The notes beneath the pieces are model-generated. The model did no database searches and had not been told where the DNA came from. It saw nothing but the letters and a program-made list of their open reading frames with translations. From the NCBI GenBank assembly GCA_032718475.1, contig JAUCBJ010009049.1, forward strand, positions 7,460 through 71,459: DNA of 64,000 bases, in the 5' to 3' direction. This document shows positions 39,235 through 64,000 of the stretch, piece after piece; position 1 is the first letter of the stretch, and each line of letters starts with the position of its first letter. Made by a program: the position numbers and the translations under genes. The stretch is from Nemertoderma westbladi (Eukaryota; Animalia; Xenacoelomorpha).

Positions 39235-39325
39235 GAACCGGTACTGCTGTAGGTCTGTAGGCCCAACTGCCGGAACCGGTACTGCTGTAGGTCTGTAGGC
39301 CCAACTGCCTGAACCGGTACTGCTG
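39235..39325 (+). repeat. 37-bp tandem repeat (~2.5 copies) in the A2 leader
   Basis: GAACCGGTACTGCTGTAGGTCTGTAGGCCCAACTGCC repeated; A1 has ~1.3 copies. Confidence 0.75.
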
Positions 39326-41412
39326 TATAAGTACATTAGTATTATTCGATTTGATTGTTATACCGGTAGGTCTTAGTACTTAATCGGGGAACGGCCGCCC
39401 TGGTTTTTTATTGAGATTTTACTTATTTCTGTCAGTTTTATTTATTTGTAGGCCAATATTGAGCAGAAGGCGTGTAAGCCTGTTCAGATTGTACAGAGAA
39501 TTTGTAGGCTGAGCTGTTGTCTGACTGTTGTTAAGTCTGAAAGACTGTAGTGTGTGTAGAGCGTATGTCCGAAAGAGTGCCAGTTAGTAAGTAGGGGCTT
39601 CCAGTGTTGTGAGGTAAACCCCCTCTTAAAGAATAAGTCGTACTACTCGGTTAGCGCACATACTAACTAACCATTTTGGAGTCTGCATATACTGTGGTTT
39701 ATTTAGGCTTGATAGTAGGCTGACAGCGTTTGGTCTGTACTTTGTTTGTGTAGTCTGTACGGGTAGCGTAATATCCTTATTTAGATAATCTGTAGGCTGA
39801 ATTGTTGCCTAGCTGTTATTAGGTCTGAGGGATTGCGTTGTGTGTAGAGTGTATGTCCAATAAAGTGCCAGTTAGTAAGTAGGGGCTTCCAGTGTTGTGA
39901 GGTAAACCCCCTCTTAAAGAATAAGTCGTACTACTCGGTTAGCGCGCATACTAACTAACCATTTTGGAGTCTGTACATACCGTAGTTGTTTAGGCTTTAT
40001 AGTAGTCTGTCAGCATTTAGTCTGCATTTTGTTTGAGTAGTTTGTACGCGTTGCTTAATATTTATTATTCAGAGTTATGCGATTATTCGCAACATTCATG
40101 TCCCCAAGTTTATTCCTACAGTAATTGTGCTTGTTATACATACCGCTATAGTTAAACTAACCCCAGTACTACATCAGGGCTGCTCGGCGTAGGTAAAGAC
40201 TGGAGATTTTGTGCTTTGGTCACTCCGGCAGATACCGTGGTTCTTTTAGCTGTTCAAGTATTTTTAACTGCTGGTTATCTGTTTTATAAGTACTTGTACC
40301 TAATTTAGGGTTTAGTGTACAGTGCTTTCCGAAAGTAATTAGTGTGTAGGCAGTATATTTGTGTTGTAAAGTGGTTAATAGGCACGTTGGTTCTGGTAGA
40401 CCGCTGTAATTAATCTCTAGGTAGGGACACTCCGTGATACATAACGTAGTACCTATAGCGCTACGGGTATAGGTCGTCAGACGGTGGTATTTTCCTATCT
40501 GGACAGCGCAGTATATTTACTATTACTTATTATTTTCACATACCGTAGTATCCTGTCCGTTGTAATAACCAGAAATTCTAACCTTCTGTTAGACTGGTTT
40601 GTAGTTCCCTGTAAAATTACCCTAAAATTTCGTACGTAATATTTTGTTGTGTTTAATTAGAGATTAAATCTCACCCGTGTCTTATCATAAGTAATTTGTA
40701 GATAAGTAACTTAGGAAGTAGAATTATTTGTTTTAGTGTCCTATAAGTAACACTTCACTGAAAGCGCACCGCTTTGTGTAGTGATTACTTCCCGGAAATA
40801 ATAACATCTATTTCAATATTGTAACAAAACCCTCATACGGATATATATATATATATTATAAAATAAAATCAATTAAATCTATTTATAAATAGTAGGCCTA
40901 TTATACAACCTTTAGGTCTTAAAATCAGTTGGACTACTGCTCAAGTAACGGTAATAAAGTAAGTAAAGTAACCAAGTAACCCTAAAATTCAGGAATTCAA
41001 TTATTTAAAATAATTGACATACCGGTATTTACAATAGGCTTATTATATTTATTTCTATAAATTTAGGCTGAAATCATACCGGTATTCTGTAATTAATATA
41101 GGCCATAATTATACCTATATATACTATAAGTGTAGGCTGTATACCGGTATTCCAGATAGGCCTATTATATACTTATATATATTTGTGCTGAAACTACATA
41201 CCAGTATTCTGTAACAAATCTAGTCTGTAATAATACTTATATATACTATAAGTGTATACCGGTATTCTACTATATTGCGTGTACATATACAGCTACACTG
41301 AGTAGCAGTATAGGTAATTGATTACTAGGATAGCAGTGATACTGAATTACTAGACTTGCTTTAACTTTATTTATAGCAGTAGGTATTCAACTGTATAACT
41401 GTATAAACTGAA

Positions 41413-44400
41413 ATGTCTGACACGCAGCAAAACCTATCAGACAGTCTCCTAGATACAACCATCCGCGACTCAGATAGGGGTGTTGAACCGTCGAGACCTA
41501 AGTTCAGCTCACCTCCTAGTGTAAGGAAAGTCATCCCTCCTGTAGTAATATCAGACCCTAGGCTAATCCAACACCATAGGTCTATCATCGGTACGCGGGC
41601 CCAAGTTAAGCGGGATCAAGAAGCAGCCGTCAATCAGCAGCAACCCCCTAGCCAAGAACCTAGTTCTCAGCGGCCCGATAGCTCCAGTAGTTCGGATACT
41701 GTTGAGCTAACGCCCGAACGCGGAGCAAAAATGGCGGATACAGTTTATTCGGACCCCCTTCTTGTTCTTCCGGCAGCAGTACTAACTACGGTGTTAGTTG
41801 CGGTGGAGGAACACCAACATGATTGGGTTAGAAGTGGGCAGTCGACCAAAGATAGTTATGCGGGATACCTGAGGGAAGAACTGATGTCTATTGTCGAGTC
41901 ACAGTGGAACTTCCCCGGACTCGGACTCCCGTTTGACTTATCGGAAGCCACCTGGGATGATATACACCGGATGGGAGTGGCCAAGGACACCGTAGATCCA
42001 GCTGTTTGGAAGAGGTCAGCAGCTGGATATGTACAAGGGTTCTTCGGCTCTTTGGAGCGATTAGAAGAACAGCTGTTTCGACAACAACGAGGACCTCAAG
42101 AGCAGGAAAAGCTGCTTTATCAAGTACGTGAAAGAACTCTACGCATTAGACTAATCCTATCGGCTTTTGAGGAAACATCCAAAAGAAAGCAGGACACGTC
42201 ATTGCAAGTCGCTGTCAAGACTTGGTTCCAGCGGGTGAGCCTCAAGGTTCAAGAAACAGCCAAGTGGAAAGCTCAGTTGGCTGAGCGCCCCTACCACTAT
42301 GAAGAATCAACCGACGCCACCTTTTCTCAAGGGGAAAGCGAAGTAACAGCAGCAGAGAAGCCGCGAACTAAAAACGCTATTGACATTTATCTGTCCGACT
42401 ATCAGCGATTCCTAGGAGACGAAGAGTTGAGGAGACGGTTGGCTGGACTTTCCCCTAATAGTGAAGGAGCCAAGCATGTGTTGGACGCAATCGATACGGA
42501 AATGTTAGCTGAAGACCAAGCTAAATTTGATGAACGTCTCCGCATAGCTAGAGCCCAGGAAGAACAAGTAAAGAAAAGGCGGATAGAAGACAGAAAGGCA
42601 GCATCAGTAGCAGCGGCAATGGCAACAGCAGAAGCAGACAGAAAGGCGGCAGAAGCAGCGGCCGAAGCAGACAGAAAGGCAGAAAGAAAAGCGGCAGAAG
42701 CAGCAGCCGAAGCGGACAGAAAGGCAGAAAGAAAGGCGGCAGAAGCAGCAGCCGAAGTGGAAAGAAAGGCGGCGGAGGCAGTGGCCGAAGCAGAACGGAG
42801 AGCGTCTGAAGAGACCACCCAACTAGAGTTGGAAAATCTGCAAGAGACGCAAGACAACATCAATAGACAGTTAACTGATAGTCGAATGAAGATGATGAGT
42901 CGATCTACTTCCAAACGCCAAGGCTATACATCATCGGAGGAAGGGGATACCACCGACCCTGAAGGCGGAGTAAGTAGATCTCGTCTCAGTAGGCGTAGAA
43001 ATACATCTCACCGTCACAAATTGCCCGATTTGCCCCCGCTGTTAGAAGACAAATAGCTAGCACAACCGTAGGTAGTATAGAACCCACAGACCAGATTACT
43101 GTAAACAGACACCCTACTATAGTAGATGAACCTGAAATAATTAGGCCTGTTCTCGAAGCCACCCCTTTGGTGCTAGAGACACCTGTACTTCTAGAACCTA
43201 CATTTAAATTCCCTTTACACAGCACCAAACTATCTGTGCCTAGAGGAACAGTTCCTGAAACAGTGTCGGTCTTGGACTCCGAGCGAAATATAAATAATAT
43301 ATCGCCCGTAGTCCCTCGTCTGCCCGCTACGACGTTGGCGGATCCCGCTTCGGCGGTTAATTGGGTAGACGAGAGACGGCGGGGGATGGACATTCTCCTC
43401 GGAAAGATGGAGGAGAATCGAGTACGCTCCTCCCAACAAGTCCGAGAGTTAGAAGGGACTGTTCAACAGTTAAAAGGAACTGTAAAGGAAAGTAGGTTAG
43501 AGTTGCAAGAAGTGCAGCAAAGTATCGCATTAGAACGTGATAAATTAGTCAATTTACAAAAAGGTATACCACTACCCCCTGTAACAATGTGTCAACCCGT
43601 TAGGTCTGAAGTATCCCATGCGCAAGGTGCGGAGCCTACACGCATCTATACTGCTAGCAAAGTAGAAACTCCTGTAGTGAACCCTATTAAGGGTAATTAT
43701 AGACCTGTTGACAATGATATCCCATCTAGACTGGATAATAATCCGAGAAATTTATATACCGATAATTCTCTATTCAATAATACGATGGCTCAAGAAAGTT
43801 TTACGCGTCAAATGGCTAGAACCGAAGCCCGGCAAGCGGTAAAGGTTGGAGAGATCGCCAAGTTTAATGGAGATGAGATGAAATGGTTACCTTTTAATGA
43901 ATATTACAAAGATAACATACAGGACTCTGTACTATCTAACGGAGAGAAACTTAGATTCCTTATTGAGTGCTTGGAAGGATCTCCCAAGTTAATGGCGTTA
44001 AAGTTTATTGAACATCCAGACGGATTAAGACAAGTTTGGGACACACTAAACATCAGGTATGGTAATAGGAATAATATCGCTAAATATTTGTATGCAAAAT
44101 TAGTAGCGCCCAGAAAGTTCATCAACAGTGGGATAATAGAGTTTTCCGATGAGATTCAAGAGATCTGTAGACAATTAGATTGGTTAGGTAAGTCTCATGA
44201 ATACCAAAGTTCTATGGTCATTGGAGCTGTAGCTTCTACTTTACCGAAGGGTGGTGGGGTAGGCACACGCTGGGATAAGAAGGTACTATATATGATGGAA
44301 CAACAACGACGGGACCCTACCATGGCTGATCTCATGTCATTCTTGGACGGAGAAGTGAAATTGCAACTCCTCTAGCAGTCCAGAGAGAAGACACTGGAAA

Positions 44401-47400
44401 ACAAGGTAAGTGAGAAACCCCTTTCCCGGAGAAAAGTAACACCAGTATGTTATACCGACGATGGCAAAAGCCAGACTTCTCAAGGAGAGGACAGCGGAAA
44501 AAACACTGACAGATCTTATTATGTCAATAAAATGCCTAAAGACCAGGTAAGTAAATCCAAGTCTCGACCCAATGACAGAAGGGAACCGGTAAGAAAAACC
44601 CCTCCTATGTCTCCTAAGAGAATTCAGGTGAGAAAGTCTGAAGAAAGAACGAGTGTGCACAATGTCACCCAAAATAAGGTCAGTAACATCAAACCTAAAT
44701 GTGTACTATGTGACGGGACTCACCGCTTGAATATGTGCGATGAATTCTTAAAGAAATCATTAAAAGAGAGACGGGAAGTCATGTGGGATAAGCGGTTGTG
44801 TTACAATTGCCTCAGACAAGGACATCAACGGCGAACCTGTTACTCTGACATAAGGTGTGCAAAGTGCGGTGCGAAGCATCACCTCTTGTTGCACACTGAA
44901 TTCGAGCGAACCAACCCGAGTCAGGTAAGTGATTCCGAATTACATGTCCAATTCAGTGATGTGAACGACACCGACCGAGGTTCTGAGATGGAAGGATTCT
45001 ATACGGACAAGTTCTCCGACGAAAACGAATCCTGCTATATGATAAATACCGCTGTGTATCGAGCGCTTATGTATGAAAAAAATACAGACAACGACCTTAC
45101 CTTAACTACTTCGGATCAATAACAATCTTGGAAAGCGCCAACTTCAAATGTAGGAATCCGAGAATTTCCTGTAGTCCAGTTGCGGGTCCACGGACCTCAG
45201 AAGAGCTATATAGTGAACGCCCTCCTCGACTCCGGTAGCACAGGAACATTCATCGATAAAGAACTAGCCGAAGACATCTTTGCTGGACAACCCAAGTTCC
45301 GAACCAAGCTAAAAATGTCAGGAATCATGCAGGTTTGGAAATCTACTGTAGCTGCCGACTATTATATAGGTGAGTTGTCCACTCCACAGGATAAACTAGG
45401 AGAATACAGTATAAGGTCAGTAAAAATGGTGGCAATAAAGAACTTCGCTACCACCCAAGTGGAACCTTATAATTGGGACGAAGATGATCATGCCCAACAA
45501 CTTAACATCACTAGATTCGACACCGATTATCCTGGAGTACAAATATTAATCGGTCAAAACGCGCATGAGGCGCTGAAGACATAAGAGAAACGACCTGCTC
45601 AACCGCAACCACTTCAGACCTATGCGGTAAGAACTAGAGTAGGTTGGTACCTTACTGGACCTTCCCGTAGAACACTCAGAGAAAGACTACCTCAAGATCG
45701 CGTCTGCCAAGTGAGTGAATGGGAAGATGATACTAGTGAGGAAGACGATCTAACTGAGGGAACTCCATACTCCTCAGATAACGATGACGTTCACCAACTT
45801 TTTGATGAGGAGAATACCATTGATCTCCTTAAGGAAAACGAGGCTTGGCAAAACCAAGTGAACCTATGTCAACTTCTCTATCCATCCGAAAGAGAAGCGT
45901 ATAATGACAAGCTAAATGACGTCATTGAACGTTATAATGCCAAGACTCGGGATGAACATGCCGTACGATTCTTTATGCAAGAGGCGGTAGAGCCCAATTC
46001 CTACGATAAGGCCTTATCGGTGGAAGAGGAAAGGGCCAAGCAGATCCAAGAGACAACTACACGTTTCCTCAAAGATCAAGTTGGTATGAAATCGGTCTAC
46101 CTTTCCGCAAGTGAGAACCGAAGTTCATCAATAACAGACCCTTGGCGGAGAAAAGAATTGCGCAACTCCATCGACACCTTACGGCAAATTCTTCAGCTAA
46201 AGAAATGTATCAAACACAGCTGAAGAAATTTATTAGTAAGGGATACGCGGAGAGAGTACCGGAAGAAACACCTGTAACTGAAAGAACGTATTACTTAACT
46301 CACCATTACGTTCCCAAACCCGGTAAACCACATGAAGTGAGAGTAGTGTTTGATGGCTCCGCTCTCTACATGGGCCAATCCCTTAACTCTGAATTGTTAC
46401 CCGGACCCAACTTACTTCAATCCTTGTTGGGAATTCTTTTAAGATTAAGACAATATTCAATCGCTTTCGCCTCAGATATAGAAGGCATGTTCTTACAAGT
46501 TAAGGTGCTGGATAGGGATCGAGATAGCCTACGATTTCTATGGTGGCCTGAAGGAGACCTCAACCAGAAACCGGTGGAGTACTGGATGACCATCCAGGCC
46601 TTTGGGATAATCTCAAGCCCTTCCAACGCCTGTTCAGTGGTGCGTACCACTGCGGATGACAACCGAGAAGCCTTCTCTAAGGAAGTGATTGACAACATCA
46701 AGCGGGACATATACATGTACGATAATCTGAAGTCCCTTCCATCAGTTGAAGAAGCCATTGAGGTCGCTAAAGGAACGGTAGAGTGCTTAAAAAGAGGTGG
46801 ATTTAGATTATAAATTCACCAGCAATTCCCGTGAGTTTCTGGAGTCGATCCCTGCAGAAGATCGAGGGGCAAAAGATCTAGATTTGATCAAGGATGATCT
46901 TCTAGAAACCAAGACACTCGGCTTGAAATGGGACACAGAGAGAGATATCCTGTTTTTCCAACTAAAACAGCGAGATAATCCAGTTCGAACCAAACGGATT
47001 TGTTTGAGTATACTGAGCACTTATTTTGATCCATTGGGATTTATTAGCCCAGTTATATTGATTGCTCGAAGTTTGGTACAACAAATGTGGCTTGAAAACC
47101 ACTCATGGGACGATCCACTTAAGGGAGAATTATTAAAGAAGTGGATGAAATGGGAAGATTCTCTGCCAGCCATCGAGGATTTTATAATTTCCCGTTCATA
47201 TTTTGGTCATGTTCTCCCTACGTATTCCTATCAACTCCATGTGTTTGGAGACGCCAGCGATATGGGAATAGGTATAGTAGCCTACCTGAGAGTGGAAACT
47301 CCGGATGGAATCAAAGTCGCCTTGGTTACCTCTAAGGCATTAATCAACAACAAGTTGAAAGTTCCTCGAGCGGAGTTAAAGGCGGCGCTATACACTACAG

Positions 47401-49595
47401 CCATCGGCCGGAATGTAACCGAACAGATCGATTATCCATTAGAGAAAACTGTCTATTGGACCGACGCTTTACTCGTGTTAGAGTATATAACCAATGAAGT
47501 CTGTCAGTTCAGCGTCTTCGTTACCAACAGAGTAGCCATCATACTTAGTCGCACGACGATGGATCAATGGAGACATTGCCCCGGAACGATTAATCCAGCA
47601 GACATCGCCTCCAGGGGAGCGACTCCAAAAGAATTGGTAAATACTCCCGAATGGTTAGGTGGACCCGACTTCCTCTACAGAGAAGAAGAAGAATGGCCTC
47701 CCCATCTCACAACAGCAGAGATTAGACAGGCCAAGGGAGCGGAGAAAGTTAAACCTAAAACTCGAGCGAGTAAATCGAAATTATTTAAACCTGCGGTTGA
47801 TCTATCTGTATTATTTACTTCCGGAGGTGATGCTTTGGATCAGAAACCCCCTGCCACGAATAAAGAAGTCTTGGAAATCCGTGACAAGGATTGGAAATCT
47901 GGAATACCAGATATCTCACAAGGACTCTCACCTCTCCTGCAGAGAGCGATCCATCACTACAGTTCCTGGAATCGGCTCTGTAAAGCCGTCATATATTTAA
48001 AGCGATGTTTTCATCATCATTACTCCAGGACAAAGACCAATAGTGATGATGCTCCATCGACATCTGCACGAGTCCATGTTGTTAAAGATCTTCCCAAATA
48101 CAAGATATCCGACAGGTTTCTAAAGGAGAAGATCAGTTACCAGGAGCATGATGAAACCAACAAACAGATGCTAAAACTCCTACAATGCTATGAGGATTCC
48201 GATAAGTATTTCCTGTTGTTGAGAAATCCGCAGATGCGCTTAAGGGATCGCTTCTCTAGTACAATGATAGATGGGTTAATACGTGTGGGAGGAAGGCTTA
48301 CTAACGCCCCATTATCCTTTGACACTAAGTTTCCCATACTCATTAGAAATCTTGATATACAAATCAAGATGATTGTAGATGTTCATGGTAAACTGTACCA
48401 TGCTGGTAGAGAACGAGTTCTTAGCGAAATTCGAACTCGCTACTATTTTTATAAACCCCGCAGAGCTCTGAACCAAGTTCTTAGGAACTGCATACCCTGT
48501 AGGAAAGCATTCAGTAGGCCTTTAACACAGCGAGAGGCAGAATTACCTAGGGAACGAGTAAGCTTCTATGAACCACCCTTTACTAATACCGGTGTGGATT
48601 TATTTGGCCCTATTGAAGTATATCGTGCCCGGACTATAGTCAAGAGATGGTGTGTCATCTTCGTTTGTATGACTTGTAGAGCTATCCATCTCGTTATGGT
48701 AAACGATCTATCTACCAACAGCTTCGTGTTAAGTTTACGACGACAGATCGCTCGCTTCGGAACTAGTAACACGATGAGATCGGATAAAGGAACGAACTTC
48801 ATTGGCGCCAACAACGAAATTCAAGCTTACGTAAAGGACTGGAACCAAAGACAGGTGGACAACCAGCTAAAGGTAACAGCGTCTAGCTGGACCTTCAACG
48901 CCGCCGACGCCCCTTGGTGGGGAGGAACTTGGGAGAGATTGATTAGGAGCGTGAAGACTGCATTCCACTTTATAGTGCCGTGTCGCGCTTATCTCACCGA
49001 CGAACTATTACAGACGTTAATGGAGGAAATCGCCGCCTATCTCAACGAAAGACCGCTTATGCCAGTCTCTTCAAGTCCTGATTCCCTGGAAGCGCTAACA
49101 CCCGCGCACTTTCTACTGAAGAAACCCGTAGCCATGCTCCCACGATCGGAGATCACAGACGGAGACGAGTACTGCCGTCAAACCTGGCAACTTATGCAGT
49201 TGCTATCCCGTCGTTTCGCTGACCATTTCGAGAAACATTATCTGCCCACTCTACAACTTCGAACTAAGTGGTTTGCGCAGCAAGAAAACGTCAGCGCTGG
49301 AGACATGGTGCTTATTGTGGACCCCGATCTCCCACGTAAGCGATGGCAAACAGGTTGTATCATCAAGACACATATCTCGAGCGATGGTTTGGTGCGATCG
49401 GTAGAACTTGTCGTCATGCGGCGTAACTTTAAGAAACCGGGGATAGTCTTTGAGACTCAACAGCTCAACCACCCAGTGGGTCGTTTATGTTTACTGGAAA
49501 GAGACAGAGAGCTCTCCGGAAACTATGGAAGGCAAGAAACTCTTCCCACGACCACCTCCCTAATCCAACCAACATCTAGGGGCTCCCCAACTTAA
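41413..49595 (+). pseudogene. A2 gag-pol polyprotein (~2730 codons), disrupted
   Basis: ORFs 41413-43056 (with an AEADRKAERKAAEA coiled-coil repeat), 43167-44375, 44532-45122 (CVLC..H..C, CYNC..H..C, CAKC..HH knuckles), 45180-45584 (ALLDSGS), 46142-46813 (RT with YMDD mutated to YMYD) and 46797-49595 (RNase H, HHCC, DDE integrase). Confidence 0.93.
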
Positions 49596-51252
49596 TATCG
49601 TTCGGAGTGGGCGTGTGACTCTATTATTTTATATTATTTTATTATTTTTATATTTCTGTATGTATTACTATGTAATTTTATTATAATCGTTTTCTTTAAT
49701 TTTTATTTTAAGTAGAATATTATTAGTGATTATTTAGTAGAATAGTGCAATATATTCGCGTTTATTGCGTACGTAATTACTTATATATTATATCTTTAGT
49801 GTGACGGCGAGAAACAATTATTTTTCTCTTTCCTTACTGTCTGTATTATATTATAAATACGTGACTACAGTAAGATGAAATGTCCGTACTTATTAAAGTA
49901 CAATAAAGCCACTACTATATTCAAGTATTATTGGTAGGCAGAGTATTAGGAATGCAAAGTTCAGATCCTCGTGTCTCGGCTAAACCAAGCTCTGGGTAGA
50001 CCTTGGAAACGACTTGCCTCTTCACACTGACATTGCTCCGTGCGATATTGCTCTCATACCATATATAATAATACATATAGTAGCGTGATGTCCCTATAAC
50101 AGTAGCGTAAAACGCACATAAATCTGTTAAACCTTTGACCATCTGTAATTCTAGTCGATTAAGATATCGCGGCACCCACCGATATACTTGAAAGACAAAT
50201 TCTAGAATCAGTGGTTAACGTCCCCAGACTAGTTCTGGAATAAATCGGTGCCCATCTCAAATATTAATTATTTAATATTTACAAATCTATAACTAAAATC
50301 TGTAAAATTCAGATCCTTTAACAATTCTGGTCGATTAAGATATCGTAGCACTTACCGATACTCTTAAAAAGACAATTTTCATAGAATTAAGGATCTCGTG
50401 TCCCCAGACATGTTCTGGAATCAAATCGTGTCAATTTTACTATTAAATAATAAAATTCACGGGAATAAATTTAAATTCATACCTTTCAATGAATTTAATA
50501 AATTGCCATTTTTACGCAATTTATAACATTCCCAAAATTCCATTAATTAATAGACCACGGGAGTGGAGATTTATCTTATCATGCGCATTAGTGTGCGAGA
50601 ATCTCCCAAACATAGTCAATAGCCGATAAAATTCATAAAGTCATGTATAAAACGGGATATTGACCATTAAATAATTACTATTAAATAACATCCCAGATCT
50701 GTATGCATTGGAATTACCCTAATTCTACCGCTAGCTTTGCATAATGTCACCATAGCAACAACCACGCTAGAATTAGAATTGAGTTAAAAGAACAATAGAA
50801 AGCTTGTCCCATTGAATAGCATAGGGAATAAATAGCGCAGTGCTAGTATCCAAGGATACATAATAATACAGTGACATTCTGAAAGGCACTGACTAATGGA
50901 CAAATGGCCCGAATGTGCGTAGTTTGTGACAGTTGTGTGGTATTTGTGAGTTTATAGGTGAATGTTACTGCTAAAGTGTGTTTACAGTAGCTAGTCGCAA
51001 TCGTGAAAGTAGCCCTAACTCTCCAAGGATAACCTGAAGTACATCTAAGCCTTTGGGACGGACAGTGGAGTGACTTGTGCCAGTTATCGTTGTCGTTGTG
51101 CGGCTACGTCGTTGGCGAAAGTACAGCGACAGCGGTACATCGGCGCTGAGAATCTCACACTGTCCGGGGGCAAAAGCGGGGTAGGCAGCGACGCCCGCTC
51201 GCCTAATATATACATAAACTCATTATAATATTGGTGAACTCTTATAGCAGAT

Positions 51253-54200
51253 ATGACTGAGTTGATAGAAGATGATCTTGGTATTAGGGAGCGATATACT
51301 CTACCTTTACAAGCGTTTGTCGATAGCTTGATACGCGGCGACGCTGATCCAACTACTACGGAGGACGATGGTCGTTATATCGAACCGCCAATGTCCCAGG
51401 AGCAACTTACGCGGGAATAGGATTATAGAAGGTTCACCGCTCGCTATACGCGTCGTAATGGTACGTATATGGACTTCTTAACTACTGGTCATCCTATCGA
51501 TTTACACGATACAGACGATATAGACACCGAAAGGGAAATGGTTTTATTTAAATATCATACCCAGCGGAGTCGAAACGATAAATCAAGAATAGAACACGAG
51601 AACTCTATTCGAAATAGACTCGAGAGGGAAGACGTTGAAGAACCGGATAAACGTAGCGACTTTAACGATTATCTAGAATTCCTGAGAGAGACCTATCTCA
51701 ATATTGCCAGCCAACAAAACCTCGAAACTCGATATCCTCAAGGTATACATCCAGATCCTATGATGGAACTCAAACGGCTCTATTTTACGATGATGTATCT
51801 TACCGCCGATCGACCGCTACCTGTCGTTCCAGATAGCTTCGAACAGATGGAGGAATATTGTAAAACTGGAGAGCGATCACCCGCGTTTCCCCTTCAAGAC
51901 GTGCGTCTTTGGTATTACTGCGACGAATGCCCTAGACCTAATCAGCAAATCGAAAGGCATAAACATCCGCGGAGACGTTGCGCTAAACACAGTTTTACGC
52001 GATATACTTATGGGAGTTTCGAGCGAAACCTTTTCGATGTATCACCTACGGTCGCACGCCTTAAACGATCTTTGAATAAACCCATGATCAGAGTTCCGGA
52101 ATACTTGGTCAAACCTCCTCATTCCCAAGTGAGACCTCAAACTTTCGATCCTAATAGTATTACGGATCCTCCCGAACTGTACTCACTGTTCAAAGATCTA
52201 GTGTTACCCGAACAGTTGATTGGTGGCACTCCGGTAGTGGGTTCGTTAGATATTCGCCAACCCTACCTAGCTGGACTAGGACGCGGTCATCTAATATCAC
52301 CGTTTAACCCATACAACCGTCCTGGCCTCCCTCCGATCCAACCTGTTGCGGAAGTCGAAGAGAGCGTGATACGAAATGCATTGGACGCTATTCGGCAGAA
52401 AATCGGAAAGGGAACTTACAATTGCTTGGAAAAACGTAAATTGCAACAACAAGTCCAAGCAGTGAAAGAACTAGCTTTACCCCAGTTTGATAGAGAAATA
52501 CAAAATCTAGAGGAGGACATCGAACGTGGACGCACCTACTCTTTACAGAAATTCCTGGACGAGCGCTTGCAACAACAAGCGGAGGAAAATCAGCTTGAGG
52601 AGAGACATATAGAACTGAATGAGAGGGAAGAAGCAGCTTTAGCCCAGCCAGAAGCTCAAATTCTCATGACGGATCTCTATTCTAAAACGATCCTCCACCC
52701 CTCGATGGTTCCTCATTTCAGAGACAAGCTCTTTGCTACGGTACAGCCTCAACCGGTTAATACCGATCTTAGATCTCAAGAGCTTATTGCGGACGCTCCC
52801 ATGTTACAACGTCCACCCATCGAAGCCGCTCGTGTCGATGGTGTACTCGTTGAACCTCCGTACAATAGAGCGGATCTTGTCTGTCGCATGGTGCACGATG
52901 TTAACATACGCGCTAGACCTTTACCGGACTCATTTTATGGAATTAAGGATCACCCTTATTACGTCAACTTAACACAATATTACATGGTAAAACCGGAAGA
53001 TCCTATGCATAGTCTGAGGTTTCTACCATTAATAAATCCTCTCGATCTTGTCGAACTCAAACAACTGCAGAAACATCTGGATCAGTTAGTTAAAATAAAC
53101 TCATTTCGAAAACCGTATAATATTTCTAGAATAGAGAAATAAATAATACCTCCGTATAATCTTGATGGATTCATTAAAACTCGATTAGTGCACTGGAATC
53201 TTGACGTGTTATTCGAGGAGGAAAGAATAAAACGATATGGAGATGTGGAAACCTATACTACACAATGCTTAAAGTATAGAGACTTACCCAATGCTAGCGA
53301 ATGCGCTACTTTGTGACATCCAGTGGGAATGACTCTCGAAAACGCCACTAAGGAATGGAACGAGACTCTTAACGTTATCGAGATGTATGGCGTTGTTACT
53401 TATGACAACGAAGGTAGCGTTCCAGCTGGAGAACTAGGAACTACGCAAATGATACACATACGAGGACTCGCTGGTTCTACCCACGTATTCACGCGAGCGT
53501 GTTCCGACGTGATTGATTATTCTTTTGAAACTCTTACAGAGACACAAAAGAAACTCCGACATGGACAATTCGAGCTCGCGCAGCGTTATGTCAACAACAC
53601 TGAGCGCAAACCAGCCATGGGTATCGATGGATCAATGTTACCTCAACCCGTACTCGAAATGTTGTTTAACGAAAGAATCCTGAAAATCGGCTCAGCTGTT
53701 TATGGAGATCTCCAAAACGACTTTCGGAATATGGAAAACATTCCATACCCTTTCGTTGATACTCAGCTGATTGCTCCTTGGGCCAAAGGCCGAGGTTTCT
53801 TTCGCACGATGTATGCCAATACACCCAGCGGCATTACTAAAGTACAACGGACCTCCATCGGACATCTTGCCTTTCAAGAATATGGATGGAATTTCAAAGT
53901 TGGAAATCCTATCAATTACCAGCAAGTATATGGAGATCATTACTCTCGTTTGTATTTTGATGGACCATTAACTGCGCCTGGTGCCGTAAATAGCTTTATG
54001 AGTGTTCCACTTCGCCCTTCCTTAGCTATATACACGATCTTTGAGAACGCAGCACTTGCCGGTTGGCTAGTCGATGTGTGCAGTCGTACCATACGCGCCC
54101 ATCCATTAATACTTGGAACCAAACTCGCCAAATTTATACGTTTCGAATGTTTCCGGCGCTTTCTGACTCCGTTCCGTAACGTCAATAGTCAGTTCAAGGA

Positions 54201-55496
54201 CCGCGCGCTGACCAAACTCAGTCTGAGAGACTCAGCTGCGGAGAAACTGAGTAGCGCTGGATTTGCCATTTTTCAAGACGTTTGTATACAGAACTTACAT
54301 TCATCTGTTATACAAAGACCCCGAATACCTACAGGTTATTCTGTCGTAGAAGTCCAGACAGTGGGTCCACTTACTGAGACAGACGCTCCCACATCAACTA
54401 TGCAGTTGGAGGATGAGCCAGTATGCTTGGAATCAGAAGCGATTCAGCCTACAGCTTCCCGGAGCAGCAATAATGATTACGTCTTAGAGTGGTATCAAGG
54501 TCCACAACGTCTCACAGCGTACGATTATCGACACGCGAACTATGTTTCTCGAAAACGTTGTCGATTATGCGCATCGAGAGACCACTTCACCCCTCTAGAC
54601 TCAGACGTACCCTGCTCCTATTTCCTCGAACAACTGATGATGGAAATATATTGTGCGTATTGCAGACTTAATAACTCTCATATTTTTGACGTCTGCCCAC
54701 AATTTATGACTCAATGTCACTACTGTCAACTTAAAGGACATGACAGTTACAATTGTCCCTTTAATCGCGATTTAGAGAGCGTAGACGAGATGATCACATT
54801 GCGATACATCCGAGCTTGGGAAGCGAACGCGGATTTACATTGCGAATCCCGACATCGCTATTACCCTGGATGCGCTTACGAGGGAGTTTACGCGTTCCAT
54901 CCTTATCTATTCGCGTCGATTGAACAGAAAACACGCGTACCGAGTTATGAGTTGATGAAGCGTGTTGGTGAATGTATTTCCACCAAGTTTGTTAGAAAAT
55001 ACCTTAGAAACGTTAACCCTAATGATATAACCTCATATCACTTGATCAATTTTATCCGTCAAGACCCTGAGTATGGCGATATCTTTGTGAACTCGCACCC
55101 TGAACTACAGGAAGTATCTCGGCGACCCTATGAATATTGAACCCGAGAACGCGAGCTGGAGAGAACCATTAAACCGAGAAAGTTTCTCACCACTCACGGT
55201 CCTCCCACCACTAGTGTCCAGACAGGCCGCGTCAGGTCCCGTCAGGGACCCGTGGGAGCTGCTGTCCTGAGACGCGCTCTAAAGGCTGTTAGACCTCGCT
55301 GAGGTTGATTTCAATCAACCAGGTACTTCGACGGGTGGGTATACCGATCGTAACCCTACACCTTCTGATGCAATTATATTGCACCCTTCGCCTAGGAGCT
55401 ACAGCCCTCCTAGTAAAGTGGCTCGCCCCAAAGAGAAAAGGACTCTTGCTAGCCTAAAGAAACTGCATAAACGCCGTCCGCGTAAGAAAGACTAAC
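51253..55496 (+). pseudogene. A2 ORF3 (~1400 codons): zinc finger, DEDDy exonuclease, triple zinc knuckle, basic tail
   Basis: ATG 51253, ORF 51469-53142 and ORF 53323-55140 share one frame, separated by nonsense codons. Exonuclease motifs lie at ~53390-54110 and knuckles at ~54558-54760. A C-terminal LKKLHKRRPRKKD* ends at 55496 after further disruption. Confidence 0.82.
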
Positions 55497-55565
55497 TGTT
55501 TAGAGTATCTTTATGTTTTAGAAACTGTGATTTTTATATTTTATAGACTGAAAATCCCATTTTCT

Positions 55566-55573
55566 GGGAGCGG
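55566..55573 (+). promoter_or_regulatory. Polypurine tract of A2 (GGGAGCGG)
   Basis: Immediately 5' of the 3' LTR. Confidence 0.65.
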
Positions 55574-56785
55574 TATTAAAGCTTTTGCGGAATTGCCCGG
55601 TTATTTTCCTTATTTTTTCCGTAAAATACTCTGTAGTTGGTTTAGTAGGCGTAAGAGGCCTATTATTGCTGTATCGGTGTTTTTTAGAGGACCTAAGAGC
55701 TATTTCTTCCGTATGTGTACTTTGGAAGACATGGTTGGTGATTCTATGGCAATTCTGTGACGCAAAATGGCTAGATACTCTTGAACAGTAGTTACTATGA
55801 CGACGGTTAACAGCTGATATGCATACGTGTCGATTTTCTTTGTTCTACGGTGCCTCTTGGTTTAGTCAACCAATCAGAGCGTTTTTACTGCTCTTGTAGA
55901 GAAATTTCCTAGAAATCACGCAATGCATTATGGGCAATGTTTACATTCTGTCCTAAGCCAGGAAAGAACGGCTTTTGGAATATTTGTGCTTTTCTGCTTT
56001 TAGCCTAACACTAGTAGGCTTAATTATAAGGACATATATCCGTTATCGACTGGCAATACACACTGGTATCACTGGACTCAACCTGCATATATCTTATCGT
56101 ACATACTTTTATATTGATATACTGCTATTTACTGTCGGTTCTTCATTATATGGTTGATGAAATATTATATTGGAATAACGAGAAATAATCCCGAAACCCC
56201 AATATTCTTGATATACCGAAGGTAAGAGAGACCGGTTACATATAACGATTGCGATTTATGTTAAAGTGGTTTGAAGTGAATCTAATGTTATTCGATAGAC
56301 CCTACATGAGTCGGTCTGTGTTCCTTTTATATGTGACTAAAATCAGTGAAGATCGGCAGATTAGTGTGCAGTATTGTGCAGCATTGTGTATGAGTGAGAC
56401 TGATAACGAAGCATTTCCTAAAGAATGCGCCATATATGTGAATTATAACTAAGCCATATCGTTGCGTGTAGTTTAAGTCATAACTCTGTTTATATAGATA
56501 AAGCGCCACGTCCTAAAGGAACTGTTAATATTCCCCGAAGGTGAATAATATTGTCAGAGATTATATAATACGATCAGTCGAATAATACAGTAGGCTTACA
56601 TAGCAATAAGATTAAGCCGTCGAACTCAATCTCCCGGGTATATCCAGCGGGTGAATGATCGCGCACGGATTGGTTTCGACTAGTGTAGTGAATCAGATAC
56701 TTGTCAGAGGCTAAAAGCGATTTATTATCTAGAAGACATCCTAATTTGGCGGGTTAAACTGCCAAAGGTCTTAAAAGCGCGAACA
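55574..56785 (+). repeat. 3' LTR of A2 (1212 bp)
   Basis: TATTAAAGCTTTTGCGG...AAAAGCGCGAACA, followed by the TSD CCCTA. Confidence 0.95.
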
Positions 56786-57057
56786 CCCTATGTACCTTTT
56801 CAAGTACCGAAAAGTAACACCGCACACACACGGCGTAAAACAAATTGCTACAAACGAACTATTAGCTAGTCAAATGTTAAATACGAAACTACTAGCTACC
56901 CTAAAGCCTACTGAAGCAGGGTTCGTTCTACAAATTACTAAATTTTACTAAATTTTTAGAATTTTTTATTTTACAATAGCTAAACTATATTTATATATAT
57001 CTCACCTTAAAATGCGCACGCACTTCCGGTCGAGATATTTAAATAAATATGCGTTAC

Positions 57058-59439
57058 TGTTGTGTCCCCTACGGTAAGGACTACCCGACAGCCTACAAAT
57101 CTACTAATCAAGCTATAGGATATCTCTAACCGTAGAGTCCAGTAGTATACCGCTTACCAGATCCTAGTAACGATGTATCTTACTTTGAGACTCTAGTAAT
57201 GAAACGGGCTCGTACAGTATCTGACAACAAATCCCAGTCCAGGATATCTAAACAAACAGACACAATACACAAACTACTACTGGCGAGGAGCAGAGCCTGG
57301 TGTCTATTCTATGTACGCGAGCGGGTCTAATGCCTACGAACTAGACAGAAGGATACCTGTCCTCTAACCGGTATGGCAGATGTACAGTTACAGTAACAGA
57401 CCAAACTCACGGGAAAACAATCCCCGCGCAGCGAATCCTAACTATCGCTGACAGTCCTAAATACCGTAACTTGCCGCGGTGTGATTTATATGGTTTATAT
57501 ACAAGCTAGGTGGAACACAGCCCTAGCGTAACAATACTGATTACCCTTGTCTGAATCAGTCTAAGAATGGTCGTGCCTAAATGTAACAATAACTGATGCC
57601 CTGTACAAAATCAGTCTAAAAGGGTCGTGCCTAACGTACAATACTGCTGGGTAGAAAACAACAGTTTAATAACGAATAATGAAATACAGAAAATCCTCCC
57701 ATTTTGCCGTAACTAAATATCAGATCCTAATTCTACAAATACAGATAAATTCTGCCTAAATCTAAAGTGCGCTATCTAGTAGGAACTCTAAGGGTAAATA
57801 TGTTTTAGGGCGTGTGTGTATGGGTGTGTTACAAATAAAACAATTTTGGTGTACGTCGTTTCACTAGGTTTTAGTGATTTCCTGACTAAAATAGTACCGA
57901 GCGCTAGCTACTAAAATAAACTAGTCGCGTTTGTAGAACTTTATACTCACAAAATGACGTCAAAGCTCTCTCCTTCCTATCCACAACTCAACTGGGCAAC
58001 CACGGTGTTAGTAACTATACCCGTGATCGGCACAAATACAAGATTCTGGTTGTAAGATAAGAAATAGGGATTAATTGCTACCATAAGTTAGCTGATCTGG
58101 TATACAAATTTGATTCTAGAATTTTGTTGCTGCGGTAGTTAGCAGCAAATACCTATCAGTACGTGGCAAGGCGCGGTAGGATATTAATAAACCTCCCTAG
58201 GCCAAGCGGTGTGCCGGTAGCAGAAATGCTCCTTGCCTGATCAAATAACTAACTCCAGGAGGAAGGGGGGGGGGGGGTACTAATGTATGTTCACAAAGCG
58301 AACCGGTACCAAACAGTCAGTACTAACAAATCACTAAATTATGGAACGTATGCTGTCCGTACCTAATATGTACTTGCGTACTGACGAACGGCAATAGCTC
58401 ACGTTTGTACCTGTAACGCATACAGGTGTTCCAAGGGTTTGTAGGGCTGACAAGAAAAGGGGGAGGGGGGTTTTCTGCCTGAAATATAATTATTTGATCC
58501 TAAATTTTGCGGCGTCCCAGAACGGCATCACGCTCACCCTGATCTATAGGTCTTACGGCGGGCAAGGGCGTCGAACAAAGTCTTACCTTCCTCAAAAAGC
58601 GGGCGCTGCATGGCAAGTCGGAGTATTTCGAAGGGCAAAGGGGGTGTGCGGTCGAACTAATGTGGGCGCTAGCGTGTTGTGGACATCCCTTCCCTGCGTT
58701 GCTGACGGCCTAACTGTTTAGGCTGACATCCTCCCGATGTTTGGCAGTCCCGAAGTCGGACCAAAAGAAAACATGTTCAGGAGTTTGCAGTATATTTACA
58801 GTTTAGATTCGAGCAAAGATTATCTAACAGAGTTTCAACAAGAAACCAAAAACTAATAAAACTAAAAGAGTAACGTTAGGGATAAAGTATCCAGTCAAGA
58901 ATGATAGGTGATAACCGAAGGCAAACCAGCCCTTATATACTAAATATCGCACATGGAAACCAAACAGAATTTTCCACAGCTTCACAATTGAGCAATGAGA
59001 CGCTCTGTGCCCTATGATTGGCCCAGCTCATCGTTCAATGTTAACCGGCCCTTACACTAATCTGGGACACGGAATCCTAGCAGAAATTTCCATAGCCTCA
59101 CATTTGAGCAATAAGATAATTTATGCCCTATGATTGGCCTGGCTCATCTTTCGATACGTTGTACGCGTCTCATTGGTCCACCAATTTGCTCCAAATGAAA
59201 ATAAATGGCCCCAAAATACAAATTTCCCGACCGGGAATCAAACACGTAACTTATCTGTAAAGCAACCAACGCCTTAACCATCTGACCACTACGCCATGAG
59301 AGTAACTAGGGGCTTTATGTGTACAATATGAATAGGCAATATTACATTACTGTAACTTAATCAAAATGCGTCGGATTTTCGAAAGTTTTTACGTTAAAGT
59401 TAAACTACAAATGCTATCTTATAGTGAAATAATTCATCA
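57058..59439 (-). repeat. 5' LTR of B2 (2382 bp)
   Basis: Repeat of 21412-23795, followed by the TSD CTCTT and resumption of the minisatellite. Confidence 0.95.
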
Positions 59440-60262
59440 CTCTTTACTATCTCCCTAATGTCCGTCTCATTGTCGCTCATCGCTCTTTACTATCTCCCAA
59501 ATGTCTGTCTCGTTGTCGCTCATCGCTCTTTACTACCTCCCTTATGTCCATCTCGTTGTCGCTCATAGCTCTTTACTATCTCCCTAATGTCCGTCTCGTT
59601 GTCGCTCATTGCTCTTTACTATCTCCCGAATGTCTGTCTCGTTGTCGCTCATCGCTCTTTACTATCTCCCTAATGTCTGTCTCGTTATCGCTCATCGCTC
59701 TTTACTACCTCCCTAATGTCCGTCTCGTTGTCGCTCATCGCTCTTTTCTATCTCCCTAATGTCCGTCTTGTTGTCGCTCATCGCTCTTTACTATCTCCCT
59801 AATGTCTGTCTCGTTGACGCTCATCGCTCTTTACTATCTCCCTTATGTCCGTCTCGTTGTCGCTCATCGCTCTTTACTATCTCCCTTATGTCCATCTCGT
59901 TGTCGCTCATCGCTCTTTACTACCTCCCTAATCTCCGTCTCGTTGTCGCTCATCGCTCTTTACTATCTCCCTAATGTCTGTCTTGTTGTCGCTCATCGCT
60001 CTTTACTATCTTCCTTATGTCCGTCTCGTTGTCGCTCATTGCTCTTTACTATCTCCCTCATGTCCGTCTTGTTGTCGCTTATCGCTCTTTACTATCTCCC
60101 TTATGTCCGTCTCATTTTCGCTCATCGCTCTTTACTATCTCCCTAATGTCTGTCGCGTTGTCGCTCATTGCTCTTTACTATCTCCCTAATGTCCGTCTCG
60201 TTGTCGCTCATCGCTCTTTACTATCTCCCTAATGTCCTTCTCATTGTCGCTCATCGCTCTTT
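59440..60262 (+). repeat. 43-bp minisatellite, right arm (~19 units)
   Basis: Same unit as 20510-21411, in register across the TSD. Confidence 0.97.
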
Positions 60263-61250: not shown

Positions 61251-61865
61251 TCATGTGAGAAAGGGTCCAATTGTTCGACTAACCCAACAAAACTTCTTAA
61301 GTCTGTTATGTTAGTTGGACACGTTGTGGGGTCTTCGAGCAGCACGTGTTCAAATGTTCAATGAAAGCACCTGTACGTAGAGTATGTAAGCTACTATAAA
61401 GTAAAATACTTAAATTCAAGCTAACCAATTATAGCACAAACAAATTATAATAACTGAATAAAACATATGTAAATTTATTTTTATATATATATAGCTCAGG
61501 CTGGGTACGACCTCAAAAACTTTTGGAATTTAACCAAGGTTAAGCGCACTTCTTCAGCACCCCAACAGGTCTGTGCTGAAGACTGGTCCTCACATTTCAA
61601 CTCCCTACTAACCCGGGATGTCGACACAAAACTTCCTGATTTATCTAGCCAGCCAGTCCCGGTTCTGGATCGTCCATTCGAAGCAGTGGAGGTGACTTCT
61701 GCCATTCTTACATACATTGCATGTATACATTACATAATATTTTTTATGTAATTATTATCTGATACATAATTAAATTACGACTGATGACTTAAAATATTAT
61801 ATTATATATATCATATTATATATCTGCCTATTGTTTGTTCCTGGTGTCTGGTTTTCGACAGGACT

Positions 61866-62753
61866 ATGTCTTCTGCTACCCGTAATAAAGAGAAAGGCAC
61901 TAAGAATGATTGGACAAATGATACAGTATGTTGCACGGAATGTAAACTAATATGGACTGATATTCGCTATGTTAAGTCTTCAAACACCGTCGACTCATTA
62001 ATACGAGGAAATTTTCTATGTGGAATGTGCAGCGCCGACCTGATCTCTAAACTTAGCGAAGAAATTGCCCAACTTCGGGGAAAAACAACCAATATTGAAG
62101 ATCGATTAAACAACGATGATGAAACTTCGCAGGTGGACCCAGATAGCAATAAACATGAACCGATGGGTACAGGTACATGGGCTGTTATGGCTTCGCGTCG
62201 AGGTAAACGGACAGGGGTTTCAATTCCAGCATCCACGGCCAATATAGCTCATGAAGTCCGGGAGGAAGTCCGCCGTCAATCAGACCAAAAAGGTAATCTT
62301 GTCGTTTCGGGAATGGAATTTCACTCAGGTGCGGGTGGTTCAAACGAGAATGACACGGCTGCAATTATAGAACTGGCGCTCGATATCGGAGTAAATCTTT
62401 CTCCCGATAATCTTAAAGTAAGACGTATCGGGGGAGACTAGAGAAAGATTCGAGTAACAAAAAATAGTGATTCAAGTCAACCTACATCCGAGGATACTTC
62501 AGCTCCAAAAAAGATAATCGTGACTCTCAGTGCAGAGAAAAGACGCCAGTTACTTCGTGCATCAAAGGATCTGCGTGATTCATCGCGTTTTGGCTCAGTG
62601 TATATCAACCCAGACTACACTCCGGCCGAAGCGTCAGCTCAATATGAATTACGCATTCAACTAAGGAAAATGCGCTTAGAGCAGCCAAACAAACGTTGGG
62701 TAATCAGGCGCAACGGAGTGGTTGAGTTAAAAGGAAATACAGACGCGGCTTAG
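61866..62753 (+). pseudogene. LINE (CR1/L2 group) ORF1 with one in-frame stop at 62439
   Basis: PHD-like CTEC...FLCGMC, coiled coil, NLVVSGM, VYINPDYTPAE...ELR...WVIRRNGVV. ORFs 61866 and 62520 are in the same frame. Confidence 0.8.
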
Positions 62754-62783: not shown

Positions 62784-64000
62784 CTACCATCTGCAGCAAA
62801 CATCGATACAGTCATAAATGCAAGTAGTCCGCTAATAATAAGTAAACAAACTCACACCCCGATGCATAAACTGCTGAGTGTTTCCGCTAGATTGCGAACT
62901 GTTAACATGCCTTCTCCGGTTAACCCGCTGGTCTCTGTGTCTTCTTCGGGTAACCGGCTGGTCTCTGTATCTGCTCCAGTTAACCCGCTGGTCTCTGTGT
63001 CTGCTCCAGTTAACCCGCTGGTCACTGTGTCTGCTCAAGTTAACCCGCTGGTCTCTGTGTCTGCTCCAGTTAATCCGCTGGTCTCTGTGTCTGCTCCAGT
63101 TAACCCGCTGGTCTCTGTGTCTGCTCAAGTTAACCCGCTGGTCTCTGTGTCTGCTCCAGTTAACCCGCTGGTCTCTGTGTCTGCTCCAGTTAACCCGCTG
63201 GTCTTTGTGTCTGCTCCAGTTAACCCGCTGGTCTCTGGGTCTGCTCCAGTTAACCCGCTGGTCTTTGTGTCTGCTCCAGTTAATCCGCTGGTCACTGTGT
63301 CTGCTCCAGTTAACCCGCTGGTCTTTGTGTCTGCTCCAGTTAACCCGCTGGTCTCTGTGTCTGCTCCAGTTAACCTGCTGGTCTCTGTGTCTGCTCCAGT
63401 TAACCCGCTGGTCACTGTGTCTGCTCCAGTTAACCCGCTGGTCTCTGTGTCTGCTCCAGTTAACCCGCTGGTCTCTGTGTCTGCTCCAGTTAACCCGCTG
63501 GTCTCTGTGTCTGCTCCAGTTAACCCGCTGATCTCTATGTCTGCTCCAATTAAACCGCTGGTCTTTGTGTCTGCTCCAGTTAACCCGCTGGTCTCTGTGT
63601 CTGCTCCAGTTAACCCGCTGGTCTCTGTGTCTGCTCCAGTTAAACCGCTGGTCACTGTGTCTGCTCCAGTTAACCCGCTGGTCTCTGTGTCTGCTCCAGT
63701 TAAACCGCTGGTCACTGTGTCTGCTCCAGTTAACCCGCTGGTCTCTGTGTCTGCTCCAGTCAACCCGCTGGTCTCTGTGTCTGCTCCAGTTAACCCGCTG
63801 GTCTCTGTGTCTGCTCCAGTTAACCCACTGGTCTCTGTGTCTGCTCCTGTGAATACACTGGTTTCTGCAGCTGCGTCTGAAACAGTCTCAGCTACTGTGC
63901 CTCCCAGTGCACCTGTCACGAAGGACTTAATCAATATATGCGTATTAAATGCTCAATCTGTCAACAACAAGGCAGCTTTTATTAAGGACTATATGGTGGA
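62784..64000 (+). CDS. LINE ORF2 N-terminus: repeat-expanded leader plus the start of the APE endonuclease (runs off the window)
   Basis: The frame is open from after TGA (62781) to the end of the window, with ATGs at 62862 and 62907. It ends LINICVLNAQSVNNKAAFIKDYMV, an APE first-strand motif. Confidence 0.78.
62912..63862 (+). repeat. 30-bp tandem repeat (~31 units) encoding SAPVNPLVSV
   Basis: Unit TCTGCTCCAGTTAACCCGCTGGTCTCTGTG. Confidence 0.97.

Follow-up and report, generated by a model that had tools for sequence, protein, structure and literature searches.

Extra open reading frames (ORFs) that encode a DEDDy exonuclease have been described as ORF3 in the Juno, Vesta and Athena/Terminon elements of bdelloid rotifers, where they display a DEED motif and no function has been shown (Rodriguez et al. 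2017, PMC5408684); the account is repeated in reviews (PMC5718144, PMC6431247, PMC6338049). The BEL/Pao retrotransposons (Belpaoviridae) are described as 4.2–10 kb in length, with long terminal repeats (LTRs) of 0.2–1.2 kb, a primer site for tRNA-Arg or tRNA-Gly and at most an env-like third gene (PMC8742986). The stretch of DNA analyzed here (the window) consists of 64,000 nucleotides of Nemertoderma westbladi (GenBank assembly GCA_032718475.1, contig JAUCBJ010009049.1, positions 7,460–71,459 of the forward strand). The 64-kb window is a nest of four BEL/Pao-type copies that belong to two families (A1 and A2; B1 and B2). Between pol and the 3′ LTR these elements carry a very large ORF3, and a preliminary description had proposed that it encodes a DEDDy exonuclease with zinc knuckles and had pointed to a precedent for an RNase D-like ORF in rotifer LTR elements. 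The precedent is confirmed by the rotifer paper.

Priming of reverse transcription by the element's own sequence is known in Tf1/Tf2, Tj1, the Tf1/sushi group and the plant Tcn1 and TAR lineages (PMC7175516, PMC4600332, PMC6317226). The words primer, PBS (primer-binding site) and exonuclease do not occur in the available text of a survey of BEL/Pao elements (PMC3118150). The A and B elements and their ORF3 are real, under selection and unusual. We propose, with a rough probability of one in three, that ORF3 trims the 3′ end of a primer that the element makes from its own LTR.

Structure of ORF3

ORF3 of element A2 is found at positions 51253–55495 (+). It starts with an ATG at position 51253 and continues in a single frame of 1295 codons to position 55137, with in-frame stops at codons 56, 630 and 688. 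A short run extends past 55137 to another stop, and after a change of frame a basic tail is present at positions 55283–55495. The in-frame stops are attributed to decay of the A2 copy because the A1 copy is open across two of them. ORF3 starts 1.66 kb (family A) or 0.7 kb (family B) beyond pol; it is free-standing and is not fused to pol. A sequence that resembles a 3′ splice site, TAGCAG, is seen by eye directly before the A2 ATG.

The A2 sequence has an N-terminal block at positions 51745–52020 (+) that is common to B2 and displays the motifs RLY.T..YLT.D.PLP and CxxC...C..H, with no family match. The exonuclease-like domain encompasses positions 53380–54108 (+), with the Exo I Asp at 53404 and Glu at 53410, the Exo II Asp at 53707, and the Exo III Tyr at 54031 and Glu at 54043. 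Three Cys/His knuckles are present at positions 54559–54756 (+). This suggests a layout in which a predicted exonuclease domain is followed by three zinc knuckles. The B2 ORF3 (24658–27781, −) is divided between two frames, and its exonuclease-like domain is at about 25682–26374 and its knuckles at about 25405–25584. Element A1 has an ORF3 remnant (16391–18027, +) with an open exonuclease-like domain that is cut by a gap of N residues at 18028–18127. The nuclease-like stretch is free of stops at 17197–18024 in A1 and at 25667–26434 in B2. The remnant matches A2 ORF3 residues 391–468 and 489–961 only and is without the N-terminal block. The A1 ORF3 region is also interrupted by 1.25 kb (15137–16388) that has no other match in the window.

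Comparison of the A2 and B2 ORF3 sequences by BLASTP shows three blocks of similarity in the same order: the N-terminal RLY/CxxC block with 35 of 103 residues identical (34%, E-value = 6e-10), a central block with 97 of 379 (26%, E-value = 7e-27) and the knuckle block with 39 of 146 (27%, E-value = 1e-16). A large non-env ORF3 in three copies, all with the same ordered list of motifs, had been described. This holds for A2 and B2, and A1 is the remnant given above; YDNEG, KIGS..DL..DF, P.VD and Y...E are present in all three copies, and the zinc-finger block and the knuckles in two of the three (A2 and B2). The three knuckles that had been reported are found in both A2 and B2, the first A2 knuckle being irregular in its spacing. 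The reported basic tail is found in A2, in its separate frame; the B2 open frame is without it, and a basic stretch follows there only in another frame.

No strongly hydrophobic segment is present in ORF3, the best 19-residue Kyte-Doolittle means being 1.32, 1.48 and 0.78, in agreement with the earlier statement that ORF3 has no transmembrane segment. An env role for ORF3 was rejected on this basis.

In all four public runs, contigs cover each of the 30 bins into which the region was divided. The family is a highly repeated one, with 22,610 and 7,192 contigs in two of the public runs, although contig depth is not taken as copy number. In some public contigs, joints bypass the greater part of ORF3 together with the nuclease domain (52614–55351; 51620–54460), and thus deleted copies exist as DNA.

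Similarity to DEDDy exonucleases

Motifs and profiles together make it very probable that ORF3 has a DEDDy/RNase D-like 3′–5′ exonuclease fold. A fourth sequence could be included in the comparison, P0122, a protein of 648 amino acids that is the only relative of the three-copy profile among 1.84 billion proteins (E-value = 3e-9). P0122 is known from the protein alone and displays the same nuclease motifs and three knuckles. In an E-INS-i alignment, the D-x-E, D and Y-x3-E of A1, A2, B2 and P0122 are in register with the three motifs of six bacterial PF01612 proteins. Exo I was misplaced by the default aligner and was brought into register without manual help in the mode suited to long insertions; A and B both have about 40 inserted residues ahead of Exo II. 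The Exo I Asp-x-Glu, which in PF01612 enzymes closes the first strand, and the Exo II Asp are found in all four sequences. Exo III is Tyr-x3-Glu in 4/4, so that the last acidic residue is Glu in both families, as had been noted, and in P0122 as well. Although identity between families is 21–32%, the Tyr and the four acidic positions are conserved in all four sequences.

Profile comparisons point in the same direction. With hhalign, an RNase D alignment is matched with a probability of 77% and a mixed PF01612 alignment with one of 80% (P = 2e-5); the score is 39, and 100 column shuffles reach at most 25. When 257 window frames are searched with a hidden Markov model (HMM) of 30 bacterial PF01612 domains, the two best matches are ORF3 of A1 and ORF3 of A2, in this order (E-values of 0.002 and 0.003). 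A blind scan with NCBIfam assigns A1 to ribonuclease D, TIGR01388 (E-value = 0.0026). Two language-model searches of the ESM Atlas show PF01612 on 25/30 and 24/30 matches with scores of 0.93 and 0.92, on a scale where shuffled proteins reach 0.9 in 4–10 of 100 cases. EXD2 is the sole PDB sequence match of the profile (E-value = 0.63). Several of these tests draw on the same Exo II stretch; each is weak and all are in one direction.

A number of results weigh against this assignment. The profile-profile matches span the Exo II region only (39–63 columns), and a subset of short bacterial standalone PF01612 proteins gives no profile-profile match (probability 0.1–0.2%). The B2 ORF3 is outside the top 10 in the bacterial PF01612 HMM search over the 257 window frames, and B2 and P0122 are without a match in NCBIfam. 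The rate at which shuffled proteins attain high ESM Atlas scores is a further such point. Exo III has Glu in place of the canonical Tyr-x3-Asp; thus the domain is filed as DEDDy-like and activity is not assured.

Other searches add little. Pfam shows no exonuclease match (PF01612) for any window piece, and ORF3 scores below every curated cut-off of PF01612-type exonucleases; P0122 is itself sub-threshold against PF01612 (E-value = 0.2, 11.9 bits versus a cut-off of 23.6). Searches of PDB sequences with single window pieces or with a three-sequence profile gave chance matches only. Word-based protein searches yielded no relative of the 607 amino acid A2 piece in a set of 4,199 candidates and P0122 alone in a set of 7,992, and no relative was detected when contigs from metagenomes, viruses and prokaryotes were scanned for the locus. 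It had been suggested that the fold be identified by Foldseek on an AlphaFold model. The predicted structures, made from a shallow alignment, have mean confidence (pLDDT) values of 32 and 36; Foldseek on such a low-confidence model places EXD2 first at an E-value of 1.9 and VIA-align gives nothing above Z 4.3. Neither carries weight and structural support was not obtained. The proposal of an exonuclease with knuckles is therefore upheld by the motif register, the NCBIfam RNase D match and the two language-model searches, and is not upheld by Pfam.

The substitution in Exo III bears on a different function, in which a catalytically weak or dead, RNA-binding ORF3 would act as an adaptor that exports, localizes or packages the very long genomic RNA, as with Cer1 CERV or Egalitarian. 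The P0122 knuckles resemble HIV nucleocapsid (E-value = 1e-4) and Air2 (E-value = 0.06), an accessory export protein has been shown for Cer1 (PMC10309623), and the splice-site-like sequence before the A2 ATG would also be in keeping with an adaptor. However, retention of the four acidic positions and the Tyr at the low identity given above would be more typical of a working site, and the adaptor function is considered unlikely.

The EXD2 match is compatible with end polishing later in replication, by which ORF3 would clear cDNA ends or strand-transfer intermediates of non-templated bases, or would remove primers. DEDDy enzymes act on both single-stranded DNA and RNA (PMC5408684). The closest curated match is nevertheless RNase D, and the gene content described for other BEL/Pao elements is gag, pol and no more than an env (PMC8742986), so that this function appears improbable.

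Selection on ORF3

The ratio of non-synonymous to synonymous substitution (dN/dS) was determined from one pair of copies, A1 and A2. In ORF3, 462 codons can be compared, and these show 144 synonymous and 46 non-synonymous differences, which corresponds to a dN/dS of 0.069 (0.05–0.09 in different parts). The nuclease part alone has a dN/dS of 0.051 (95% confidence interval 0.027–0.083, 272 codons). Comparable values are 0.123 for RNase H, 0.124 for integrase, 0.153 for gag and 0.035 for the reverse transcriptase piece. The nuclease part is thus more tightly held than RNase H, integrase and gag and is close to the reverse transcriptase piece. Wrong-frame controls give 2.1–2.5. ORF3 is under strong purifying selection. 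A dN/dS comparison across copies had been recommended in the preliminary description, and for this one pair the outcome is purifying and not neutral.

The selection values bear on a counter-silencing function, which had been one of the original suggestions. ORF3 would here bind, trim or degrade host small RNAs or their precursors, or act as a decoy for host DEDD factors (Mut-7/Nibbler, EXD1, Maelstrom), and self-priming would be unrelated. The broad domain family is the same as that of small-RNA factors (PMC5408684). The free-standing position of ORF3 past pol would be apt for a protein that acts in trans. The contig counts of the two public runs show that the family is highly repeated, and copies from which much of ORF3 is deleted could rely on protein supplied by others. 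A protein in conflict with its host would be expected to be partly fast-evolving, yet dN/dS is low over all 462 codons, and the primer anatomy described below is left unexplained. Counter-silencing is thus regarded as rather unlikely.

Primer sites

A primer site that starts with TGG is the mark of a tRNA primer. None of the three primer-binding positions (A1, A2 and B2) begins with TGG. Each is instead complementary to a site within the LTR of the same element. The A2 primer-binding position (39166–39178, +) forms 13 pairs, 12 of them Watson-Crick, with a candidate self-primer at 38414–38426 (+) inside the 5′ LTR, which has its 3′ LTR copy at 56034–56046. The A1 position (4638–4648, +) forms 11 Watson-Crick pairs with positions 3866–3876 (+) inside the A1 5′ LTR. 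The B2 position (57047–57057, −) forms 11 pairs with 58413–58423 (−) inside the 5′ LTR, with a 3′ LTR copy at 22769–22779. Pairing is flush from base 1 in all three elements: the 3′ end of the partner abuts the LTR edge, where a primer must end.

Self-priming has been defined by ten or more bases that start 0–5 bases after the 5′ LTR and are complementary to the LTR (PMC6317226). The A1, A2 and B2 sites, with 11, 13 and 11 bases from base 1, fall within this definition. Dinucleotide-shuffled LTRs reach flush pairing in 2, 3 and 13 of 1000 trials (A1, A2 and B2, respectively), and other leader positions in 2, 0 and 0 of 296. The primer site is homologous in A1 and A2, where letters on both sides have changed in step, and family B shows different letters again. 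When an 800-base RNA is folded from the primer onward (A1 and A2 only), the primer helix has pair probabilities of 0.65–1.0. By analogy with Tf1, the A and B elements most probably self-prime. A fragment of a host tRNA may serve as primer in place of the LTR. The preliminary description missed the self-priming signature, which offers a third and more specific job for ORF3.

The location of the primer in the transcript can be read in two ways. Identity between the A1 and A2 LTRs is 20–68% upstream of the primer and 72–92% from about 80 bases downstream, which fits a transcript start near the primer. TATA-like words are present 445–540 (A) and 470–920 (B) bases downstream of the primer and would put the primer in U3. 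In all four public runs the likeness to A2 stops at positions 38425–38431, the 3′ end of the primer, which fits a dispensable trailer; the stop is seen in a stretch of 111 bases, and part of it may be due to A2 having diverged from those runs.

Several other features are seen near the primer sites. A block of about 60 bases (38363–38427) that ends at the primer 3′ end is the conserved part of the LTR region across public contigs; it could represent a core promoter or, alternatively, the main part of a small primer RNA. Both A copies have a conserved hairpin (CTTTATTGC...GCAATAAAG) right behind the primer site (39181–39208; about 4655–4680), and a second hairpin is located near the U5 end in the A copies. 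Structures flank the primer sites of Tf1 and retroviruses, and the A hairpins recall these. Near the start of the B LTR (about 59215–59300, −, with a copy in the B2 3′ LTR) a stretch that resembles the A and B boxes of tRNA genes is seen by eye; Rfam shows no tRNA match.

Two other primer sources were considered and rejected. For a tRNA-like self-encoded primer, ARAGORN in default mode gives 0 genes, a relaxed run gives about 1000 meaningless calls, and Rfam on positions 55500–59500 gives two chance matches. A primer made by splicing is unneeded because the primer is contiguous in the DNA in 3/3 elements.

A possible function of ORF3 in primer trimming

A self-made primer needs an exact 3′-OH, and for this reason a primer-trimming job is proposed for ORF3. 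In the model, an LTR-derived RNA would anneal to the primer site. The RNA could be the 5′-terminal part of the genomic RNA, freed by a cut somewhere in the loop of 740–1350 bases, or a short or processed LTR transcript. The ORF3 knuckles would chaperone annealing as nucleocapsid does, and the nuclease would digest the 3′ overhang as far as the duplex, which would block it. Trimming would leave a 3′-OH at the LTR edge, the required starting point of reverse transcriptase. RNase D trims the ends of tRNA precursors, and a duplex would halt an RNase D-like enzyme that trims overhangs. Processing of element RNA at its 3′ end is suggested in the rotifer paper itself (PMC5408684).

Several considerations tell against primer trimming. 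The link between enzyme and primer is a co-occurrence in one lineage only, and families A and B count as one case because of their shared ancestry (pol 35–40% identical). Tf1 makes its primer with RNase H alone and does not require such an enzyme (PMC7175516). ORF3 is separate from gag-pol, and its packaging is therefore an extra assumption. The trimming model also assumes the place of the primer in the RNA, which may be different.

A broader proposal is put forward only tentatively. A complete home-made priming system, composed of an LTR-encoded primer RNA and an element-encoded RNase D-like nuclease with nucleocapsid-like knuckles for maturation of the primer 3′ end, may have replaced the tRNA primer in a lineage of giant BEL/Pao elements. 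If true, reverse transcription would here be primed by a route that differs from tRNA priming as well as from the RNase H cut of Tf1, and retrotransposon-borne DEDD exonucleases would gain their first defined job.

Organization of the elements

Element A2 (37952–56785, +) is 18,834 bp in length, is nested in the 5′ leader of B2 and is bordered by the target duplication CCCTA. Its 5′ LTR (37952–39165) and 3′ LTR (55574–56785) are paired, with 13 mismatches and 2 gap columns; the A LTRs are about 1.2 kb. The A2 gag-pol region (41407–49595, +) is interrupted by stops and frameshifts and displays a long N-terminal extension, DUF1759, knuckles, a protease motif, PF05380, an integrase zinc finger and DUF5641. 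A putative plus-strand primer tract, GGAGCGG (55567–55573, +), is purine-rich, adjoins the A2 3′ LTR and is common to B2. Element B2 (21412–59439, −) has a length of 19,189 bp without A2 and a target duplication of CTCTT. Its LTRs (5′, 57058–59439; 3′, 21412–23795; −) are 2.4 kb each and differ by 39 mismatches. The target duplications of A2 and B2 are 5 bp each and accompany the paired LTRs. Element A1 is inserted in B1, with its start at 3451 and its 5′ LTR at 3451–4637 (+), and stops at the assembly gap.

Pfam shows the BEL/Pao domains DUF1759, PF05380, Integrase_H2C2 and DUF5641 in both A and B; a protease motif and Y[VM]D[DN] motifs are found upstream, in keeping with the BEL/Pao order of protease, reverse transcriptase, RNase H and integrase. 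The reverse transcriptase itself has no Pfam match in these broken pol frames. The closest pol relatives share these domains, are 23–40% identical and are spread over many animal groups, which indicates affinity only. Elements A and B are BEL/Pao-type and are filed as such on domain content.

The lengths of A2 and B2 agree with the approximately 19 kb that had been reported, fall outside the typical BEL/Pao genome of 4.2–10 kb and are about twice the described maximum. This is relevant to a proofreading function for the reverse transcriptase, by which ORF3 would enable a large genome, as nidovirus ExoN does. Much of the extra length, however, is ORF3 itself, the long LTRs, the leader and the gag extension. 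ORF3 could not correct errors of RNA polymerase II and is not fused to pol, and plant LTR elements reach about 24 kb in a survey in whose available text the word exonuclease does not occur (PMC6317226). The original suggestion of ExoN-like proofreading is thus weak, and this function is very improbable.

Other features of the window were noted. Family A is found twice inside family B, A1 in the B1 gag and A2 in the B2 leader; within so dense a cluster this may be a coincidence, or it may reflect a preference in targeting. A 43-bp tandem array is present on both flanks of B2 (20508–21412 and 59434–60262), and B2 is inserted into the array. The very long gag N-terminal extensions (41407–43056, +, and 34912–37364, −) contain Ala/Glu-rich repeats with no Pfam match. 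The reverse transcriptase motif is YVDN in B2 (31898, −) and YVDD in B1 (641, −); YVDN has also been reported in C. elegans Cer7–Cer12 (PMC554778). An ORF for a non-LTR-type reverse transcriptase (18238–19686, +; RVT_1, E-value = 2e-28) follows the assembly gap. A 30-bp tandem array of 31 copies is located at 62914–63847, and upstream of it a 217-codon frame with a Cys cluster (61788–62441) resembles by eye a fragment of ORF1 of a long interspersed nuclear element.

Comparison with known systems

The ORF3 described here shows the three Exo motifs of RNase D, EXD2, WRN and Mut-7 (PF01612) in register, and differs from these proteins by the insertion of about 40 residues before Exo II and the Glu in Exo III. 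C. elegans BEL elements reportedly include Cer13 with an RNase D-like extra domain and Cer7 with a self-encoded primer; if this is correct, both features would have precedents in nematode BEL elements, which could lower the novelty of the present case. No paper was found in the literature that joins an exonuclease ORF3 and self-priming in BEL/Pao elements, or that shows either there, most subscription journals, Repbase, Dfam and supplements being outside the scope of this search.

The rotifer ORF3 is similar in that an RNase D-like exonuclease is in the ORF3 position and has no transmembrane segment (PMC5408684). The rotifer hosts, however, are retrovirus-like lineages and Penelope-like elements, and the elements here are BEL/Pao-type. 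The rotifer motif is DEED and that of the A and B elements is D-E-D-E, and the protein here, longer than 1000 residues, has a Cys/His block at its N terminus as well as three knuckles. In the rotifer paper no departure from neutrality was found within the genome, where the env-like and GDSL ORF3s were measured, in contrast to a dN/dS of 0.05 here; the available text of that paper does not discuss primer sites (PMC5408684). Exonuclease ORF3s of retrotransposons have been known since 2017 without a function shown, and the A and B case adds strong purifying selection. It also provides a concrete candidate substrate, a duplex of 11–13 bases with a 3′ trailer, and the function of ORF3 is thus directly testable.

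As in the Tf1/sushi group, the primer site is complementary to at least 10 bases of the element's own LTR and not to a tRNA. The Tf1/sushi, Tcn1 and TAR elements are Gypsy or Copia, whereas pol here carries BEL/Pao domains and not those of a Ty3/Gypsy chromovirus. Unlike in Tf1, the primer precedes the LTR end by 739–1355 bases, and the elements have an additional gene for a nuclease.

The A and B elements are similar to the Belpaoviridae in displaying DUF1759 gag, PF05380, H2C2 integrase and DUF5641 in BEL/Pao order and LTRs that end in CA (PMC8742986; PMC3118150). They differ in their length of 19 kb, LTRs of 1.2 and 2.4 kb, self-complementary primer site and nuclease-like ORF3 (PMC8742986). 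A2 and B2 roughly double the described BEL/Pao size range, and the A and B primer sites break the tRNA-primer rule of the ICTV profile for BEL/Pao (PMC8742986). Each ingredient thus has a precedent in another class of element, and the combination of a 19-kb BEL/Pao frame, a multidomain ORF3 under selection and a self-priming signature is new.

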